Shown here: piece after piece, positions 5,717 to 46,846 of the stretch
Position numbering within the stretch: position 1 is the stretch's first letter
Layout of the letters: each line of letters starts with the position of its first letter
Source of the DNA: Parcubacteria group bacterium
Lineage (GTDB): Bacteria; Patescibacteriota; Minisyncoccia; Moranbacterales; UBA2206
DNA: 64,000 bases
Assembly (NCBI GenBank): GCA_041661275.1
Contig: JBAZUU010000001.1
Span: 229,057-293,056, forward strand
Direction: 5' to 3'
Notes under the pieces: generated by a model
Told to the model about the DNA's origin: nothing
Databases searched by the model: none
The model's input: the letters and a program-made list of their open reading frames with translations, nothing else
Program-made: the position numbers and the translations under genes

Positions 5717-6679
5717 GTGTCGCAAAACGAAGTTATGAATATCCAAAGCCTAAAAACCCAATTCCTGGAATATCTAGAAATTGAACGCTCGCGGTCGCCA
5801 AAGACCATCGAAAATTATAGCCACTATCTGGATGTCTTTTTGAATTGGGCTCATATCAATGATCCAAAAGAGATAAATGATGATCTGGTGAGAAATTTTC
5901 GCATCCATCTCAACCGCTTGGAGGACAAAAAGGGCAAGCGGCTTCAAAAGGTGACTCAGGGGTATTATGTCATTGCTCTACGCTCATTTTTGAAATATCT
6001 GGCCAAGCGTGATATCAAGACATTGCAAGCGGAAAAAGTGGAAATTGGTAAAACACCAGATCGAGAAGTGGAGTTCCTGGAAGAAGATGAGGTGGAGAGG
6101 CTTTTGGGTGCGGCGAAGGGATCTGATTTCAAATCGCTTCGCGACCGGGCAATTCTCGAGATGCTATTTTCCGCTGGACTGCGTGTTTCGGAGCTGACTG
6201 GTATCAATCGGGATAAATTAAACTTGAAATCAGGCGAGCTGTCTGTTCGTGGAAAAGGCGATAAAATCAGGGTGGTTTTTATTTCCGATACGGCCAAAGA
6301 TGCTTTGAAATCATATTTAGAAAAAAGAACAGATATTGACCCGGCACTTTTTGTGCGGGATGCCAAGGCGCAAGAAAAATTCGAATCAAAAAACAAAAAA
6401 AATAAAAAAGATAATGATAATCTTCGTCTCACCCCCCGTTCCATCCAAAGAATCGTAAAACATTATGCGGTCAAAGCCGGTATTGTCAAAAATGTCCACC
6501 CGCACACGTTACGTCATTCTTTCGCGACTGATTTGTTAATTAACGGAGCGGATATAAGAAGCGTTCAGGCCATGCTCGGCCATTCTTCGATCACCACAAC
6601 GCAGGTCTATACTCACATAACAAACCAACAACTTCGCGAAGTGCACAAAGCCTTTCATGCGAGGAGGAGGAAGAAATAA
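5717..6679 (+). CDS. tyrosine site-specific recombinase, XerC/XerD family
   Basis: The catalytic C-terminus (HPHTLRHSFATDLLINGADIRSVQAMLGHSSITTTQVYTH) matches the family. A K/N-rich low-complexity insertion lies before the catalytic domain. Confidence 0.85.
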   Translation: MSQNEVMNIQSLKTQFLEYLEIERSRSPKTIENYSHYLDVFLNWAHINDPKEINDDLVRNFRIHLNRLEDKKGKRLQKVTQGYYVIALRSFLKYLAKRDIKTLQAEKVEIGKTPDREVEFLEEDEVERLLGAAKGSDFKSLRDRAILEMLFSAGLRVSELTGINRDKLNLKSGELSVRGKGDKIRVVFISDTAKDALKSYLEKRTDIDPALFVRDAKAQEKFESKNKKNKKDNDNLRLTPRSIQRIVKHYAVKAGIVKNVHPHTLRHSFATDLLINGADIRSVQAMLGHSSITTTQVYTHITNQQLREVHKAFHARRRKK

Positions 6680-17263: not shown

Positions 17264-20200
17264 ATGGAAAAAGATATCAAAAATACTAGCGTTATTCAAT
17301 CGCGGGAAATTACCGAAGAAATTTCGCAATCCTATTTGGATTATGCTATGAGCGTCATTGTCGCTCGCGCTTTGCCTGATGTTCGCGATGGCTTGAAGCC
17401 GGTTCACCGAAGAATCCTCTATTCCATGTGGAACACTGGTCTTCGCGCCAATGCTAAATTCCGAAAATCAGCCACAGTGGTCGGAGAAGTCTTGGGAAAA
17501 TATCACCCGCATGGCGACGTGGCGGTCTATGATTCTATGGTGAGAATGGCCCAGGATTTTTCTCTACGCTATCCATTGGTGCGCGGTCAGGGAAACTTCG
17601 GTTGTTTTACAAAAGACACTAGGGTCAAACTGGCTGATGGGCGGAATTTAAGCTTCGAAGATCTTATAAAAGAAGATAAACAGGGCAAAAAAAATTACAC
17701 CTATACGGTTAATTCTTTGGGTTTAATTTCAATAGCTCAAATAAAAAAACCTCGCCTTACCATTGAAAATGCAGAAGTCATTAGAGTTGTGCTGGACAAT
17801 GGGCAGAAAATTAAATGTACTCCTAATCATTTGTTTATGCTCAAAAACGGCCAATATGAAGAAGCGCAAAATCTGAAAAAAGAGGATTCTCTAATGCCGT
17901 TATATGAAAAGTTATCGGAAAAAACTGATAGGCTAAATCGTGAAGGATATACTCTAGTATACCAGCCCAAAAAAGACGAATGGGTTCCCGTGCACCACCT
18001 GGCTGATAATTTCAATTTGACTGTTGGAAAATACATAAAAAGTGTCGGTAGGGTAAGGCATCATTCGGATTTCAATAAACTTAATAACAGTCCTGAAAAT
18101 ATTGTCAGAATGAATTGGAAAGAGCATTGGAGCGTTCATTATGAAAACGCTTCCTTGTTGCATAAAAGCGCGAATTATCGCCAAAAAATTAAAGAAGGTC
18201 GGGATAAATATTGGTCAGACTCTCAAGTTCGAGAGCAATATGCAAAGCGTTTATCTGAAAGGAATGTGATAAATTGGGAAAATCCGGAATATCGGGAAAA
18301 GATGCGTCTTTTTTTGAGCGAGATGAATAAGCAGTATATGAAAGATCATCCGGAAAAACGCCAGGAAATTAGTGAGCGCGCTACAAAAACTTTGAAAAGG
18401 CTTTGGAAAAATCCCGAGTATCGCGCGATAATGCATGAAAGAATAATCAAGGGAAACAAAAATCACAAAACCAATAAAACCGGCAGGTTAAAGTTCCTCA
18501 ATGTTTGTAAGGAAATTATTGCAAAAAATCTTGAGATAAATGAAAAAAATTATTCTCAATTCAGAAAAAAAGTTTATGCCTATGGAGCGGCAACGCTATG
18601 GGAGACAGGATTGAATAAATATTTTCAAAATAGTCCTGACCTGATTCGACAGGAAATAAGCAAAAATCACAGAATCGTTAGGATCGAAAAGATAAAAGAA
18701 AAAGAAGATGTGTTTGACCTTACGATTGATAATTCTCACAACTTTTGTTTGGGTGCCGGAGTATTTGTTCATAACTCGATGGATGGTGATAGCGCGGCAG
18801 CCTATCGTTATACAGAAGCCAAGCTTTCTGTCATTGCTGAAGAAATGCTTATTGACATCGAAAAGAATACTGTCGATTTTGTGCCGAACTTTGACGGACA
18901 GCACAAAGAACCAACTGTTCTTCCCGCCGGACTCCCTCAGCTTCTTCTCAACGGTTCTATGGGAATCGCTGTCGGGATGGCGACAAACATCCCTCCGCAT
19001 AATTTAGGCGAACTTATCGACGGCATCAATTGTCTTATTGAAAATCCGGACGCGGAAATTTCTGATCTCGCGGAATTTGTGAAAGGTCCGGACTTCCCTA
19101 CTGGTGGTATAATTTACAACAAAAAAGACATCCTGGAAGCCTACAAGACCGGACGGGGAAAAATTCTCACGCGAGCCAAGGCGGAAATCGTGGAAACAAA
19201 AGCCGGTGCGTTTCAAATCATTGTGAGCGAAATGACTTATGCCACTAACAAAGCGACAATGATTGAGCGAATGGCTGATCTGGTGCATGAAGGAAAAATT
19301 GTCGGTATTAGGGACATTCGAGATGAATCAGACAAGGAAGGAGTGCGGCTGGTCATTGAGCTCAAAAAAGACGCTTATCCGCAAAAAGTTTTGAATAAAC
19401 TATATTCCCTCACCGATCTCCAAAAAAACTTTGGAGTGAATATGTTGGCGCTGGTCGGTGGCATTGAACCGCAGATCTTGAACCTGAAAGATATTTTGGA
19501 AGAATATATCGAACACCGAAAAATTGTCATCACTCGCCGGACTAAATATGATCTGGAAAAAGCACGAGACCGGGCGCATATTTTAGAGGGCTTGAAAATC
19601 GCTCTTGATCATATCGACGCGGTGATAGAAACAATCAAAAAATCAGAAACCAAGGAAATTGCTCATGTCAATTTGATGAAAAAATTCAAATTATCCGACA
19701 GACAGGCTACAGCAATTCTCGAAATGAGATTGCAAACTTTGGCGGGGCTAGAGCAAAAGAAAATCGAAGACGAGCTAGCCGAAAAACTGAAACTGATTGC
19801 GGAGCTCGAAGCTATTCTAAAGAGTGAAAAGAAAATTTTAGGAATAGTCAAAGATGAGTTGGCGCGCGTCAAAGAAAAATATGGCGATGAGAGAAAAACC
19901 AAGATCGTGAAAGGCGGCATCACCGAATTCAAGCAAGAAGACCTTGTGCCGAACGATGAAGCGATAATCACTATTTCCAAAGAAGGATATATTAAAAGAA
20001 TGGATCCGGCCGTATACAAAGTTCAGCGTCGGGGCGGAAAAGGAGTGATTGGCGCCACCACCAAAGAAGGCGATGAAATTTCTGAAATGCTGGGCGTTAT
20101 GGCGCACGACAATCTTCTCTTTTTCACCAACACCGGAAAAGTTTTCCAGACGAAAGCTTATGAAATTCCCGCTTCCACCCGGATCGCCAAAGGCCAGTCC

Positions 20201-20884
20201 ATTGTCAATTTCCTTTCACTTTCCAGTGAAGAAAAAATAACCGCGTTGGTGGCGTCTGGAAAAGATGACGCCTATAAATATATGTTTATGGCCACGGAAA
20301 ACGGCACAGTGAAAAAAACATCGATCGAAGAATTTGAAAATGTCAGGCGTTCCGGACTCATCGCGATAAAGCTGGAAAAAGGTGACGCGCTTTCCTGGGC
20401 GGAAGCGACATCGGGATCTGACGAGGTAGTCATCACTACGCAAAAAGGACAAGCCATCCGCTTTCGCGAATCCGATGTCCGTCCGATGGGTCGTGCTGCA
20501 GCGGGAGTGCGTGGCATCAAACTAAAAACCGAAGACAAAGTGGTCGGGATGGATGTCGTTTTTAAAGGACAAAAAGGCAATCAGCTTTTGGTCATCGGAG
20601 AAAATGGATATGGAAAAAGATCAGATCTCAAATCATACAAAGTCCAGAAGCGCGGTGGGTCAGGAATCAAGACTGCTTCCATCACAGCCAAGACTGGAAA
20701 ACTGATCGGAGCGCAAGTAGTCAATCTTGATGATATTGAACAAGATCTTATTATGACAAGTGAGAAAGGACAGATCATCCGCATTGAGCTAAAAACCGTC
20801 TCCGTCCTCGGCCGCGCGACGCAAGGTGTCAGGGTTATGCGTCCACAACCCGGCGACAAAGTTTCGGCGATAACGGTTTTGTAA
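17264..20884 (+). CDS. gyrA: DNA gyrase subunit A, interrupted by an intein
   Basis: [23 protein letters not shown] and [12 protein letters not shown], then the intein, then [17 protein letters not shown] and the GyrA beta-pinwheel repeats. The extein totals about 815 aa. Confidence 0.95.
17603..18775 (+). mobile_element. GyrA intein (about 391 aa) at the canonical site between GNFG and SMDGD
   Basis: It begins with Cys ([13 protein letters not shown]...), ends ...[12 protein letters not shown] and is followed by Ser. The central domain carries tandem NPEYR(E/A) repeats. I see no LAGLIDADG motif. Confidence 0.85.
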
Positions 20885-27186: not shown

Positions 27187-27228
27187 CGATTTTGTTAGTC
27201 AATTTGCTCAGCTTGTCCCCCACCACTT

Positions 27229-27302
<74 letters not shown>

Positions 27303-27323
27303 CCCAAGTGGTGGGGGATAAAG

Positions 27324-27378
27324 TTAGAGCGCTCCGTTCACATCGGAGAGGTCTCTGGTTCGAGTCCAGATACACCCA
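27324..27378 (+). ncRNA. tRNA-Val(CAC)-like 3' fragment (D-stem 3' strand through acceptor 3' strand) lacking a recognisable 5' half
   Basis: TTAGAGCG-CTCCG-TTCACAT-CGGAG-AGGTC-TCTGG-TTCGAGT-CCAGA-TACACCC-A. Relative to the upstream tRNA-Val it shows compensatory changes in the anticodon and T stems. Confidence 0.5.
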
Positions 27379-27394
27379 CTATAAAATTTATAAA

Positions 27395-27910
27395 ATGGAA
27401 AAAGTAATTTTAGTTGATGAGAAAGATAATTCTGTCGGCGAGGCGGAAAAATTAGAAGCACATAAGAAAGGACTTCTTCATCGGGCATTTTCTATTTTTA
27501 TTTTTAATTCAAAAGGAGAATTGTTATTACAAAAAAGGGCGAAAGCAAAGTATCATTCTGGAGGGTTGTGGTCTAATACTTGCTGTTCTCATCCAGCGCC
27601 GAAAAAAAATATTTTAGACGAAGCGCATAGGAGATTAAAAGAAGAGATGGGAATTGATTGTGAACTCAAAGAAATATATACATTTATATATAAGGCAAAA
27701 TTGAACAATGATCTGACGGAATATGAATATGATCATGTCTTTGCCGGAAGATACGATGAAAATCCAAAGCCTAATTCAGACGAAGTGGAGGATTGGAAAT
27801 GGGTCAATTTAGATTGGTTGGCCGAAGACATAAAAAATAATCCGCAAAATTATACATATTGGCTGAAGGATTGTTATAGGGATGTGGTGGAGAAAATAAG
27901 GGGCTTGTAG
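27395..27910 (+). CDS. idi: isopentenyl-diphosphate delta-isomerase, type 1 (Nudix)
   Basis: HRAFSIFIFNSKGELLLQKRAKAKYHSGGLWSNTCCSHP includes the NTCCSHP signature. The track start at 27308 lies inside the tRNA-like sequence, so the Met at 27395 is the likelier start. Confidence 0.85.
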   Translation: MEKVILVDEKDNSVGEAEKLEAHKKGLLHRAFSIFIFNSKGELLLQKRAKAKYHSGGLWSNTCCSHPAPKKNILDEAHRRLKEEMGIDCELKEIYTFIYKAKLNNDLTEYEYDHVFAGRYDENPKPNSDEVEDWKWVNLDWLAEDIKNNPQNYTYWLKDCYRDVVEKIRGL

Positions 27911-27973
27911 CTCATCTGGTAGAGCGCCGCATTCGCATTGCGGAGGTAAGGAGTTCGAGTCTCCTCAAGTCCA
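27901..27973 (+). tRNA. tRNA-Ala(CGC)
   Basis: GGGCTTG-TA-GCTCATCTGGTAGAGC-G-CCGCA-TTCGCAT-TGCGG...CAAGTCC-A with G3:U70. It overlaps the idi stop codon. Confidence 0.85.
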
Positions 27974-27987
27974 CAAAAAATAATAAG

Positions 27988-28539
27988 ATGAGTAAAAAAA
28001 TAATTTTCATTCCAGGGTGGTTAGATCAGGGAATAAACTTTCCCCAATATGAGACGCTGGAAATTTGGAAAGAGAATATAAAGCCAGATGTGAAATTAGA
28101 TTGCGATGTCATCATCGCTCATAGCCTCGGTTGTCATTTTGCTCTTTTCGATTGGGAAAACGCGAAAGATAAAAAAATAGTTTTTGTGAACCCACTAGTG
28201 AGCAACCGAAATGTTTTTTCCTGGTTCTGGCGGTGGGTGAAATTTAGAATGGGAGAGACGCAATCCGTTCAGAGGAAATATATAATAAGTCCAAGACGGG
28301 TAGCCAGAGGAGTTTTCTATTATTTCAAATTTCTCATGCCAGATGCATTTTCTCGATTGGATAATATGACCGATCATAATATGATTGTCATCAGAGGTAA
28401 AAAAGATTTATATTTTTGCGATGAAGAATCATGCGTATTGTTAAAAGAGAAAAAAATTGAAGTTATAGAATTGGATGAAGTAGGGCATCTTTGGAATAGC
28501 AAAATTGATGAAGAGATTAGAAGAATAATTGGTGAGTAA
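27988..28539 (+). CDS. alpha/beta-hydrolase-fold serine hydrolase (YdeN-like)
   Basis: Nucleophile elbow AHSLGC and a C-terminal Asp/His region. Confidence 0.55.
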   Translation: MSKKIIFIPGWLDQGINFPQYETLEIWKENIKPDVKLDCDVIIAHSLGCHFALFDWENAKDKKIVFVNPLVSNRNVFSWFWRWVKFRMGETQSVQRKYIISPRRVARGVFYYFKFLMPDAFSRLDNMTDHNMIVIRGKKDLYFCDEESCVLLKEKKIEVIELDEVGHLWNSKIDEEIRRIIGE

Positions 28540-42846: not shown

Positions 42847-43152
42847 GCCAGGTTAGCTCAGCGGTAGAGCGAAGGACTGAATTTCGGTCCGTCCGGCAGT
42901 AATGCCGGAATGAAAATTGGGTGAATTCGAGGAAACCTAAGTTGCCGATGAGGCAAAATGGCAATCTCGAGCCAAGTCTTGATGGGCATAGTTTTCAAGA
43001 AAGGTGTAGAGACTAGCGAGTGAGTCCCAACAATAATCTCGCATTAGCGCCCAATATCCTGATGAAGGATAATGAAATAGTCCAATCCTTGGGGAAACTC
43101 AAGAAGGAAAAGGAAAATCCTTGCGTGCCCAGTTCGACTCTGGGACCTGGCA
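42847..43152 (+). tRNA. tRNA-Phe(GAA) split by a group I intron in the anticodon loop
   Basis: Exon 1 is GCCAGGT-TA-GCTCAGCGGTAGAGC-G-AAGGA-CT (42847-42878). Exon 2 is GAAAA-TCCTT-GCGTG-CCCAG-TTCGACT-CTGGG-ACCTGGC-A (43113-43152). Spliced loop is CTGAAAA. Confidence 0.75.
42879..43112 (+). ncRNA. group I intron (234 nt), no ORF
   Basis: The internal guide GGTCC pairs with exon 1 GGACU through a U:G at the splice site, and the intron ends in G. Its core resembles the cyanobacterial tRNA-Leu intron as I recall it (GGAAACCTAA; CTCGAGCCAAGTC; GGTGTAGAGACTAGCG; TAGTCCAATCC). Confidence 0.75.
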
Positions 43153-43209
43153 CTTACAAAGTTAAAAGTTCAAAATTAAAAGTTAAAAGTTTGGCTAACT
43201 TTTAACTAT

Positions 43210-44240: not shown

Positions 44241-44439
44241 GTGGTACCTCCTTTATTTTTTCCATCAATACATTCGTCACGCTTCTTGATTGTGATAAGA
44301 AGCTTAGCATTATCTTAGGAATAGTCAATATATTTAATACTCGAGTTTAAATAATCCATTATTAGATTCAGTCCTTACTGTACGTACTAGTTAGTTTCAA
44401 AATATTTGAAATCCCCTACGTAGGAGATTTTTGTTTTTT

Positions 44440-44498
44440 GTGGCTTATTTAAGCCATATTAGGTACTTTGATGTATATCAAATGGCTTATTTAAGCCA
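44440..44498. promoter_or_regulatory. two copies of the near-palindrome TGGCTTATTTAAGCCA, 43 nt apart, upstream of the 3D-domain gene
   Basis: Read directly. The arrangement is operator-like. Confidence 0.4.
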
Positions 44499-44622
44499 AA
44501 ATAAGCGAACAGTTGTTGACTACTGGACGGCAATTTGCTATAATGTCCAGTTAGCATGAGAAAGCCTTGAATATGGCTTTTTATGTTAGCCTAGTACCGC
44601 TTAACAAATAACATACTATTTA

Positions 44623-45180
44623 ATGCGTATCATTAGGATTGCGTTGTTACTGACCATATTATTTGTGCCGGTAACTCCTCAGATTGCTCTTGCGGCAACT
44701 GAGCAAGACTCTAATGAAACAAATATAAAATTTAATATAAAAGACGACCTGGTCATTGAAAACGGAGTGATAAAAAATAAGCCTTTCGCTTTTATTAAGG
44801 AAGACTACAAGCCGGTGAAAACTAATCGTGATATAGAAATTGAAAAGATAATTGAGAAATATCACGAAAGACACGAGAGTGCCAGACTTCCCGAAGGACA
44901 ATTCATTATCAACGCTTCAGCGTACACTGCGGCGGCCGATGAATGTGGAAAGTCCGACGGAATTACCGCTTCCGGGCTTATGGTTAAAGAAAATGAAACT
45001 ATCGCTTGTCCTCCGCAGTTTCCATTCGGAACGAAACTACAAATCGACGGAATGGGAACATATATGTGTCAGGACCGTGGTGGAGCCATTAAGGCCAATC
45101 ATATAGACATCTATGTGGAGACTAAAAAGGAAGCTTTCAGTTTCGGAAGACGAAATCTTTTGGCCCAAGTAGTGGAATAA
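44623..45180 (+). CDS. secreted 3D-domain protein (MltA/YuiC/YabE-like cell-wall-binding or lytic-transglycosylase-like)
   Basis: Signal peptide and a C-terminal 3D-domain pattern (GITASGLMV...ACPPQFPFGTKLQIDGMGTYMCQDRGGAIK..HIDIY). Confidence 0.7.
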   Translation: MRIIRIALLLTILFVPVTPQIALAATEQDSNETNIKFNIKDDLVIENGVIKNKPFAFIKEDYKPVKTNRDIEIEKIIEKYHERHESARLPEGQFIINASAYTAAADECGKSDGITASGLMVKENETIACPPQFPFGTKLQIDGMGTYMCQDRGGAIKANHIDIYVETKKEAFSFGRRNLLAQVVE

Positions 45181-45199
45181 AAACAAATTATTAAAGCAA

Positions 45200-45226
45200 G
45201 GGCCTCGCAGTAATGCGGGGTTTTTG
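45200..45226 (+). terminator. intrinsic terminator
   Basis: GGCCTCGCA-GTAA-TGCGGGG followed by TTTTT. Confidence 0.7.
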
Positions 45227-45338
45227 TATTGACAATATGCCGTTGATTACTTAAGCTAGATTAGTATATGACATTGTCGCTCCTTGATAATAACGGTATA
45301 ATATACTATAATTGCAGTATGTAGTATAGCCACCTAAT

Positions 45339-46076
45339 ATGGGCATAAAATATCAGGTCAATGAAAAATTTTTCGATAAATGGTCATTGGAAATGGCATA
45401 TATTCTTGGATATTTGTATGCAGATGGAAGCTTGGAAGATGCGAGTTATTTAAGAGGAAAGTATCTGAGGGTTTCCAGTATAGATAGGGAGTCGATATTG
45501 AAAATAAAGCACTTATTGAACTCCAAACATAAGATTGTCAAAAAGAAAAACTTATCAGGAAACCAGAAGAACTGTTATCTTTTGAGAATTGGAAGTCATG
45601 TTTTATATAACAGACTTATTGAACTAGGGCTGTTCCCGAACAAATCACTTTCGATGAAATTTCCTGATATGCCCGAAAAATATCTGCGTTTTTTTGTCCT
45701 AGGTTATTTTGATGGAGATGGGTGTGTTATGGTGCGCAAGGAGAGAAATAAAAAAGGTGCATTTGTATTAAAAGGGCTTCGCGTTGTGTTTACTTGTGGC
45801 AGTATCGATTTTTTGGAGAAGTTAGCTAAAAGAATAAATAATGCTATCAATACAAAGCAATTAAAAATATATAACGGACATAGATCGTATATGCTTTCTT
45901 ATTCAACAGACGATAGTGTATTGATTTTTAAATTCATATATAATATAAGTAAGCCAATTTTTTTAAAAAGAAAGTTTGTAAAATTCTGTGATTATTTCGA
46001 TTTAAGAATTAATAGAAAGGATAAGTATGTGTGCAAGATAATCGAAAGGTTTAATCTTGGCCGTGTGGCGAAGTAG
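45339..46076 (+). CDS. free-standing double-motif LAGLIDADG homing endonuclease
   Basis: Two LAGLIDADG motifs (LGYLYADGSL and LGYFDGDGCV) about 100 aa apart. The ORF end overlaps tRNA-Cys by about 18 nt. Confidence 0.8.
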   Translation: MGIKYQVNEKFFDKWSLEMAYILGYLYADGSLEDASYLRGKYLRVSSIDRESILKIKHLLNSKHKIVKKKNLSGNQKNCYLLRIGSHVLYNRLIELGLFPNKSLSMKFPDMPEKYLRFFVLGYFDGDGCVMVRKERNKKGAFVLKGLRVVFTCGSIDFLEKLAKRINNAINTKQLKIYNGHRSYMLSYSTDDSVLIFKFIYNISKPIFLKRKFVKFCDYFDLRINRKDKYVCKIIERFNLGRVAK

Positions 46077-46131
46077 TTAACGCGGCGGTCTGCAAAACCG
46101 CTACGCGTGGGTGCAAATCCCACCGCGGCCT
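46059..46131 (+). tRNA. tRNA-Cys(GCA)
   Basis: GGCCGTG-TG-GCG...GCGGT-CTGCAAA-ACCGC...GTGGGTGCAAATCCCAC-CGCGGCC-T. Confidence 0.8.
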
Positions 46132-46140
46132 CAAGATATT

Positions 46141-46224
46141 GCCCAGGTGGTGTAATCGGCAGCCACGCGAGACTTAAAATTTCGTGACCGAAAGGTCGTG
46201 CGGGTTCGAGTCCCGCCCTGGGCA
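46141..46224 (+). tRNA. tRNA-Leu(TAA), intron-less
   Basis: Type II tRNA with anticodon stem CGAGA/TTTCG (one G:U) and loop CTTAAAA. Confidence 0.8.
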
Positions 46225-46227
46225 CGC

Positions 46228-46262
46228 AAAAAAATCGTTCCGATTAGGCGGGACGATTTTAG
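46228..46262. terminator. bidirectional intrinsic terminator (tRNA cluster / udg)
   Basis: A-run, ATCGTTCCG-ATTAGG-CGGGACGAT, then a T-run. Confidence 0.65.
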
Positions 46263-46846
46263 TTTTCTCCGCTTTTTATTTTTTCGATCACCTTAGGGAT
46301 TCGTTTGAAATCTTTGATGAGAACTTCGCGCATACTTCCATTATATAGCGCGGCGGCGGGGTGATAGAGAGTATAGAAAACCTGTTTTCCGATGCCGTCT
46401 ATTTCGCGTCTCTTAGCTTGTCCGTGAATTTTGGATATTAGCATTCCGGGTAAAAACCTTTCCATCGAATGTCGGCCGAGTGTGACAATTAATTTAGGCT
46501 CAATAATTCTTATCTGTTCCAGAAGCCATGGCCAGCAAGACGCGACTTCGTCAGGCAGGGGATCACGGTTTTGCGGCGGACGGCATTTGACGACGTTGGC
46601 GATATAGACATCTTCACGTTTCAAATTAATAATACCGAGCATCTCGTCTAGAAATTTTCCAGCGGCTCCTACGAATGGCCGTCCCAATTCGTCTTCCTTG
46701 GCACCAGGTCCTTCACCGATGAACATAATTTCAGCTTCCGCATTGCCTTCGCCCGGAACGACATTCTTGCAACTCGTGCGCAAAACGCATTGGGAGCACG
46801 CTGTCATTTTTTTATTCAATTCTTCAAGAAGTTGTTGTTTAGACAT
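46259..46846 (-). CDS. uracil-DNA glycosylase, family 4 (4Fe-4S type)
   Basis: GEGPGAKEDELGRPFVGAAGKFL and the Cys ligands (C..C ... C). Confidence 0.85.
   Translation of the reverse strand: MSKQQLLEELNKKMTACSQCVLRTSCKNVVPGEGNAEAEIMFIGEGPGAKEDELGRPFVGAAGKFLDEMLGIINLKREDVYIANVVKCRPPQNRDPLPDEVASCWPWLLEQIRIIEPKLIVTLGRHSMERFLPGMLISKIHGQAKRREIDGIGKQVFYTLYHPAAALYNGSMREVLIKDFKRIPKVIEKIKSGEN

Follow-up and report, generated by a model that had tools for sequence, protein, structure and literature searches.

The DNA analysed here is a 64,000-nt stretch (hereafter the window) of contig JBAZUU010000001.1, from assembly GCA_041661275.1 of a Parcubacteria group bacterium. Its tRNA-Phe(GAA) gene, on the forward strand at 42847–43152, is interrupted in the anticodon loop by a group I intron of 234 nt (42879–43112), and we consider it very probable that this is a functional intron in a gene of a Moranbacteria-like bacterium of the candidate phyla radiation (CPR). 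The evidence consists of the sequence features of the locus, its match to the group I intron family, its fold and its homology to a published intron. Exons, intron and junction are arranged as follows.

42847–42878 (+): tRNA-Phe 5′ exon, with acceptor strand, D arm, anticodon-stem 5′ strand AAGGA, C32 and U33
42879–43112 (+): group I intron without an open reading frame (ORF) of its own, recognised by RF00028, covariation in 73 homologues and its minimum free energy (MFE) fold
43112 (+): omega-G, the final intron base; the G/GAA junction is invariant in alignment A2 (introduced below)
43113–43152 (+): tRNA-Phe 3′ exon, with G34 A35 A36 A37 A38, anticodon-stem strand UCCUU, variable loop, T arm and acceptor strand
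42878/43113 (+): spliced exon junction formed in silico, ...GGACU/GAAAAUCC...

The 5′ half of the tRNA reads GCCAGGU-U-A-GCUC-AGCGGUA-GAGC-G-AAGGA-CU and ends with AAGGACU at 42878. The 3′ half opens with GAAAAUCCUU and reads GAA-AA-UCCUU-GCGUG-CCCAG-UUCGACU-CUGGG-ACCUGGC-A, with A43152 as discriminator A73 and no encoded CCA. Between them, the intron starts with GAAUUUCGGUCC and ends with GGAAAAG. When the exons were joined in silico, ARAGORN called a tRNA-Phe(GAA) with a perfect cloverleaf and the 7-nt loop CU-GAA-AA, placing the insertion between U33 and G34 (33/34), just as an earlier note on this DNA had proposed for a 234-nt insertion in an otherwise canonical tRNA. Standard ARAGORN, run without its intron mode, fails to call the interrupted gene. 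Searching E. coli genomes by BLAST with the spliced tRNA, an isotype check independent of the anticodon, gave no match, which is uninformative with so short a query.

Four adjacent junctions would lead to the identical product, because the intron opens with GAA and the 3′ exon with GAAAA. The combination of U at position −1 and G at omega is found only for 42878/42879 with 43112/43113, which gives the 7-nt loop. That the true junction lies elsewhere in the loop and yields a different tRNA, for example one with a GGA or AAA anticodon, seems most unlikely to us. Errors of one or two bases in placing group I junctions are known for both ARAGORN and tFind, as described in PMC13011429, and about a dozen of the homologues discussed below received a wrong label from ARAGORN's intron mode (Pro, Ile, Val, SeC, Gly or Phe(AAA)). 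Once U(−1) and omega-G are required, however, these copies resolve to Phe(GAA) 33/34 or Asn(GUU) 35/36, with the Pro, Ile, Val and SeC labels that could speak for a shifted junction all giving way to GAA at 33/34. The neighbouring shifts leave the product unchanged, and the register is fixed by covariation in P1 and P10 (see below).

The Rfam group I intron family, RF00028, matched 42869–43104 with 87.4 bits (gathering score 50; E = 6.4e-21), and the match spans the entire model (positions 1–253 of 253), far beyond chance. The earlier note's identification of the insertion as a group I intron is thereby confirmed, and so are the details on which it drew: the guide GGUCC (42886–42890) pairs with exon GGACU (42874–42878) through U42878·G42886 at the 5′ splice site, the intron ends in a G (G43112), and the four quoted core strings (GGAAACCUAA, CUCGAGCCAAGUC, GUGUAGAGACUAGCG and UAGUCCAAUCC) all occur in the intron. 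Of the features by which membership of the class is judged, we found the P3–P8 and P4–P6 helices with the P3/P7 pseudoknot, the U·G pair of P1, the omega-G and P10. An ORF at 43020–43205 does exist (61 aa, GTG start); it extends over the 3′ part of the intron, the 3′ exon and the spacer, Pfam gives no match for its product, and we agree that it is spurious.

We drew the helices from the Rfam alignment and by hand, and tested them on A2, a MAFFT alignment of 73 distinct tRNA-Phe precursor segments whose homologues had been gathered by a search pattern that included the 5′ strand of P7 and the loop of an extra hairpin. The predicted elements, with the number of pairs that showed compensatory changes (both sides), are listed here.

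42874–42890 (+): P1, exon GGACU plus intron GA, paired with UC plus guide GGUCC; wobble U42878·G42886; 2 of 5 pairs compensatory
42882–42885 (+): 5′ extension of the guide, UUUC (P10), which pairs with GAAA at 43113–43116, the first four bases of the 3′ exon
42892–42909 (+): P2 hairpin, 7 bp, with GNRA tetraloop GUAA (42899–42902); 7 of 7 pairs compensatory
42916–42923 (+): P3 5′ strand, partner 43048–43055, paired as in the Rfam alignment; 4 of 8 pairs compensatory
42927–42932 with 42965–42970 (+): P4, 100% paired; 2 of 6 pairs compensatory
42936–42937 with 42960–42961 (+): P5, with J4/5 = AAA, flanked by the tetraloop-receptor-like motif CCUAAG...AAUGG
42942–42946 with 42952–42956 (+): P5a, the P4–P5a region being 42927–42970; 5 of 5 pairs compensatory
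42971–42973 with 43003–43005 (+): P6
42977–42982 with 42995–43000 (+): P6a, 99.5% of cells paired; 6 of 6 pairs compensatory
43011–43015 (+): P7 5′ strand GACUA, partner UAGUC at 43078–43082; pseudoknot with P3
43016–43042 (+): extra hairpin, P7.1-like, between P7 and P3′, with a 5-bp stem and the 17-nt loop UGAGUCCCAACAAUAAU; 100% paired, 4 of 5 pairs compensatory
43048–43055 (+): P3 3′ strand, from the Rfam alignment and covariation
43056–43070 (+): P8 hairpin, 5 bp, loop GAUGA; 4 of 5 pairs compensatory, 76% of cells paired with an imperfect loop alignment
43078–43082 (+): P7 3′ strand UAGUC, which the search pattern left free, unlike the 5′ strand
43088–43103 (+): P9 hairpin, 6 bp, with GAAA tetraloop (43094–43097); 6 of 6 pairs compensatory in the 37–38 sequences having P9

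Across A2, standard pairs occupied 92.0% of cells, compared with 31–49% when the 3′ partners were slid by 1–3 columns, and compensatory changes were present in 44 of 65 pairs. None of 500 shuffles attained the observed pairing measures; it is the slid control and the compensatory count that carry weight, because relatedness alone, in the absence of structure, can put sequences above every shuffle. In P1, the U·G pair at the splice site was present in 73 of 73 sequences, and the pairs adjoining the anticodon stem switched between G-C and C-G (42/30) and between C-G and A-U (40/33), following the host stem, so that GGACU occurs with GGUCC, GCCCU with GGGGC and GCCU with GGGC. In P10, 99% of cells were paired, and the +4 pair (C-G in 38 sequences, U-A in 33) followed tRNA position 37 (G or A). 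A GNRA tetraloop capped P2 in 71 of the 73 sequences, the GUAA of the window occurring in 50 overall. P7, which in group I introns contains the guanosine-binding site, had all five pairs invariant in 73 of 73 sequences, an invariance that neither supports nor contradicts the pairing. Folded alone, the window sequence reached −78.6 kcal/mol (z = −4.05), and this MFE fold recovered P1, P2, P3, P4, P5, P5a, P6, P6a, the extra hairpin, P8 and P9.

As to the periphery, about half of the family in A2, the window included, has a P9 hairpin, and CCUAA in P5 went together with a GAAA loop on P9 (18/5/5/45; Fisher p = 1.3e-8). This P5 motif resembles the 11-nt tetraloop receptor and reads CCUAAG...AAUGG in the window. 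Where the P9 loop is GUAA or GCAA, P5 is mostly plain and G-C-rich, a pattern that matches known tetraloop-receptor preferences and the established contact between the P9 loop and P5 in Azoarcus. In P9-less copies, a 5-nt repeat of the 5′ anticodon-stem strand in the 3′ tail of the intron would instead enable pairing between this tail and the 3′ exon. An alignment-free test found such pairing in 22 of 35 P9-less copies, against 2.9 ± 1.6 for shuffled tails, and confined it to the P9-less variants. These sequence patterns favour the view, better supported than the regulatory idea raised further below, that the class exists in two interchangeable 3′-domain architectures. The window itself has P9 and nevertheless carries AAGGA at 43104–43108, complementary to UCCUU at 43118–43122, as do only 3 of 38 P9-containing copies counting this one.

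To see how far the intron extends, we scanned one genome per GTDB species for a motif spanning P7 and the hairpin that follows it, GTGTAGAGACTAGNNNNTGAGN{0,2}CCAACAATAAT. At least 119 genomes matched, a lower bound that is biased towards copies keeping the motif. Among the matches listed, almost all were labelled as CPR, and they came from Moran-, Saccharibacteria, Andersen-, Peregrini-, Berkel-, Magasanik-, Paceibacterota, Falkow-, Gracili-, Doudna-, Wolfe-, Uhr-, Yanofsky-, Specht-, Lipton-, Azam- and Buchananbacteria. Hosts were assigned by ARAGORN in intron mode, a strict rule-based search, a relaxed rule and inspection by eye. At least 101 loci were tRNA-Phe(GAA) interrupted at 33/34, the window being the 102nd, and two more had only the Phe-type 3′ exon on the contig. 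The other matches listed included about ten in tRNA-Asn(GUU) at 35/36, one in tRNA-Leu(UAA), one remnant and four loci cut off by contig ends. These matches indicate that the Phe(GAA) 33/34 class is common across many CPR lineages (at least 101 species genomes), a point not made in PMC13011429, where a single case is tabulated, and the conclusion that the intron is far more widespread in CPR than one published case suggests is better supported than the regulatory gate considered below. The earlier note had called a Phe(GAA) host unusual; this stands only against the four classical hosts and gives way in view of the published Doudnabacteria case and the at least 101 species-level genomes.

None of the tRNA-Phe copies among the matches listed had an endonuclease ORF, and the Phe introns with strictly resolved boundaries (n = 87) measured 202–302 nt, too short for an endonuclease gene. 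Seven of the Asn introns, all in CPR metagenome-assembled genomes (MAGs; L011, L019, L022, L056, L064, L084 and L098), contain an HNH endonuclease ORF upstream of P3 with the motif ...CANCH.E.HA..., and the subfamily may have its mobile source in the Asn copies. The tRNA-Leu(UAA) copy (L046, 1105–1376 of JBDRBN010000043.1) lies outside CPR, in a MAG labelled Pseudomonadota, and carries the subfamily intron with the extra hairpin loop (RF00028, 76.9 bits). Seven IMG/VR viral contigs (L122–L128) also had the P7-plus-hairpin motif, with a tRNA gene in none of them; six of the seven hold RF00028 introns (58–72 bits), and the motif lies inside the intron in L122, L123, L124 and L127. These viral occurrences show that the tRNA introns share the hairpin module with phage-borne introns. 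Many co-assembly MAGs among third-party annotation (TPA) records, titled 'uncultured Gammaproteobacteria' or 'Bdellovibrionales' (L007, L008, L040, L057, L063 and others), carry the CPR-type tRNA-Phe intron, with the L008 pre-tRNA 78% identical to that of the window, and their record names may be wrong.

How the intron could be removed follows the group I scheme. The tRNA-Phe would be transcribed within a same-strand tRNA run downstream of rplS, in the order tRNA-Leu(GAG), tRNA-Val(UAC), tRNA-Phe, tRNA-Gly(GCC). In the precursor, GGACU (part of the 5′ strand of the anticodon stem together with C32–U33) would pair with the guide GGUCC to form P1, with U33 in the U·G wobble, and the intron would fold into the P3–P8 and P4–P6 domains plus the extra hairpin between P7 and P3′. 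Bracing would probably come from the GUAA loop on P2 and from docking of the P9 GAAA loop into CCUAAG/AAUGG of P5. Free guanosine bound at P7 would then attack after U33, the guide extension UUUC would pair with GAAA of the 3′ exon (P10) to align it, and G43112 would enter the G site in place of the cofactor, so that ligation of the exons would produce the loop CU-GAA-AA.

We infer splicing, and its autocatalysis, from a self-splicing tRNA-Asn relative, the sole tRNA-Phe gene of a complete relative genome and the intact core. Several points weigh against a functional intron at this locus or soften the evidence for it. As for all the tRNA-Phe introns, splicing here is argued from such relatives. 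A second tRNA-Phe was looked for in 64 kb of a contig of ~300 kb. Conservation of the P7 5′ strand and of the extra-hairpin loop is partly by construction, both having been in the search pattern. The Fisher test for co-occurrence of the P9 loop and the P5 motif ignores phylogeny, and the receptor-like motif of the window has AAUGG where the canonical one has UAUGG.

A real intron could also depend on a protein cofactor or chaperone in vivo and not be truly autocatalytic in cells. Many group I introns rely on proteins in vivo; self-splicing of the tRNA-Phe introns is itself argued from relatives; and these introns are ORF-less and, at 202–302 nt, have no room for an ORF. Nevertheless, the intron has its complete catalytic core and peripheral tetraloop contacts, which covary, and CPR genomes are protein-poor. 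According to PMC13011429, close relatives in the same phylum need no protein to self-splice in vitro. On balance we regard protein dependence as unlikely.

A dead tRNA-Phe pseudogene with a decaying intron, in a cell supplied by an intact second tRNA-Phe, we regard as very improbable. Only part of the genome is visible, and replacement can happen, as one homologous locus illustrates (L041, 6210–6456 of CAVRXN010000002.1, uncultured bacterium MFD02248.bin.2.6). There, an intact intron-less tRNA-Phe(GAA) with encoded CCA (6210–6283) is followed within ~30 nt by the 3′ half of this intron (from P6′/P7 onward) and the old 3′ exon, whose junction has mutated to CAG/AAGAG; the 5′ exon and the 5′ half of the intron look replaced, perhaps by an element integrating into tRNA-Phe. 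In the window copy, by contrast, both exons are intact and form a perfect cloverleaf, no core helix is damaged, and RF00028 gives a high score, whereas the L041 remnant falls below the threshold. Structural selection on the intron is evident across the 73 homologues. ARAGORN called no second tRNA-Phe in the window, and no intron-less tRNA-Phe was found in 685 kb around the 101 interrupted loci. In the only complete genome that could be checked, from Doudnabacteria, the authors' own pipeline, ARAGORN and tFind each count one tRNA-Phe, which makes the intron-bearing gene the sole copy (PMC13011429). By analogy, the interrupted gene may be the only tRNA-Phe gene of the organism studied here, and a functional group I intron remains the reading that we favour.

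The surroundings of the locus point to a CPR bacterium. Neighbouring housekeeping genes encode FTHFS, MgsA, FolD, an RluD-type pseudouridine synthase, ribosomal protein L19, UDG, RbfA and IF-2. Among the genomes compared, the nearest relatives were Moranbacteria/Moraniibacteriota and 'Parcubacteria group' MAGs, whose pre-tRNAs are 76–80% identical to that of the window and which also have FolD, RluD and L19 upstream (65–71% nucleotide identity), with no match at the species level; Moraniibacteriota fall within Patescibacteria (CPR). By these sequence comparisons, the window is a Moranbacteria-like Patescibacteria contig. A phage or plasmid origin was considered and rejected, as a BLAST search of the 306-nt locus against phage and plasmid collections gave no match and the flanks are housekeeping genes.

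The window holds further elements of interest. A second self-splicing or homing-type element is an intein in GyrA (ORF 17264–20884, forward strand, 1206 aa; Pfam Intein_splicing at residues 123–504), with a PHROG HNH-endonuclease match at residues 222–307. A double-motif LAGLIDADG ORF (45339–46076, forward strand, 245 aa) stands alone, its last 18 nt overlapping the start of tRNA-Cys (46059). We considered whether it marks a second, divergent intron beside tRNA-Cys and rejected this, as a permissive Rfam scan of 44400–46400 gave no group I signal. Directly after tRNA-Cys lies tRNA-Leu(UAA) at 46141–46225, which both ARAGORN and Rfam find uninterrupted, as the earlier note had it. Of the ORFs between tRNA genes at 27308–28539, which were tried as homing endonucleases, one is instead a NUDIX hydrolase and the other has a weak hydrolase-like match. 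Here, 8 nt past an intact tRNA-Val(CAC) (27228–27306), lies a degenerate second copy (27314–27378, forward strand) with the same anticodon and T arms and with decayed D arm and acceptor stem (RF00005, 34.9 bits; no ARAGORN call); it overlaps the annotated start of the NUDIX ORF, whose domain begins at residue 57.

Mechanism, type of insertion site and Phe(GAA) host are already on record (tabulated 2025–2026), and the locus opens no new category. What is added is that the class is widespread in CPR, that its fold, including a P1 and P10 matched to the anticodon arm, is strongly supported by covariation, and that its 3′ domain comes in two variants. The locus is also a further indication that ribozyme introns without ORFs persist in essential single-copy tRNA genes of reduced CPR genomes. 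In practical terms, standard tRNA finders miss the gene and the genome would seem to lack tRNA-Phe; judgements of CPR completeness and codon capacity therefore need intron-aware calling. In CPR bacteria with a single tRNA-Phe, all supply of this tRNA would pass through a guanosine-dependent ribozyme step, and the intron could be kept for coupling tRNA-Phe maturation, and with it translation, to guanosine nucleotide or Mg2+ status. The idea arises because the intron is retained without a homing endonuclease in more than 100 species; we think it unlikely, but if true, the intron would be an RNA-only regulatory gate in a protein-poor genome. Such gating has been put forward as speculation for Patescibacteria introns in general by Nakagawa et al. 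(PMC13011429).

In the literature that we searched, PMC13011429 was the only source found to describe a tRNA-Phe group I intron. Williams 2020 (bioRxiv 10.1101/2020.01.27.920355) reports an expansion of the four classical tRNA intron classes to 21, and 'Phe' is absent from its running text. Table 1 of Nakagawa et al. (2026, mSystems, PMC13011429) lists a Phe(GAA) 33/34 group I intron from Doudnabacteria (GCA_016699995.1), called identically by the authors' pipeline, ARAGORN and tFind. This intron appears there as a tabulated entry; precise in vitro self-splicing is reported for the two Patescibacteria introns that are asterisked in the same table. The Doudnabacteria and window introns share the tRNA, the anticodon and the junction CU/GAAU...G/GAA, and neither has an ORF. 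By the sequence in Table S3, the introns are 68.6% identical, and the pre-tRNAs have a mean column identity of 81%. Both have the homologous core and the extra hairpin, with the loop UGAG(U)CCCAACAAUAAUC. They differ in the 3′ domain and in the host lineage: the window copy, from a Moranbacteria-like host, has both P9, capped by a GAAA loop, and a receptor-like CCUAAG in P5, whereas the Doudnabacteria copy is without P9 and has a short 3′ tail.

The tRNA-Asn(GUU) 35/36 intron of Saccharimonadia GCA_016700035.1, which was chosen for the splicing assays of that study and self-splices in vitro, is 64.5% identical to the window intron and shares with it the P3–P8 core, the extra hairpin loop and P9 with a GAAA loop. 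The tRNA-Asn introns differ in their host and in a site two bases further 3′ (35/36), and several have an HNH endonuclease ORF. The Doudnabacteria Phe intron and two Saccharimonadia Asn introns, all found by those authors via RF00028 alone, have the extra-hairpin loop; the assayed tRNA-Asp intron and one tRNA-Met intron of the same study lack the hairpin. Conservation of the loop is not solely a search artefact, because the loop occurs in introns published independently of our search pattern.

The earlier note had also likened the intron to that of cyanobacterial and plastid tRNA-Leu(UAA). Like the IC3 introns of tRNA-Leu(UAA) (34/35) and Azoarcus tRNA-Ile(CAU), the window intron is a compact, ORF-less anticodon-loop intron whose P1 is built from the anticodon-stem strand. 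It shares with them the core strings GAAACCUAAG, AUGGCAA, GAGCCAAG and GUGUAGAGACUAG, as well as GNRA and GAAA loops on P2 and P9, respectively, and a receptor in P5; the Azoarcus comparison was made with what we presume to be its sequence and serves as a lead only. Unlike IC3 introns, it has another host and site and a conserved hairpin between P7 and P3′, where IC3 introns have no additional helices. Additional pairing at this place characterises subgroup IA and not IC3, with the difference that the window intron has one extra hairpin in place of the P7.1/P7.2 of IA. In the published survey, none of the Patescibacteria tRNA introns is assigned to IC and nearly all are assigned to IA (PMC13011429). 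The hairpin at 43016–43042 fits that assignment, and the proposed likeness to the tRNA-Leu(UAA) intron is therefore only partly right: by sequence it is fair as regards the P3–P8 core strings, whose consensus is common to both, while the extra hairpin sets the window intron apart.

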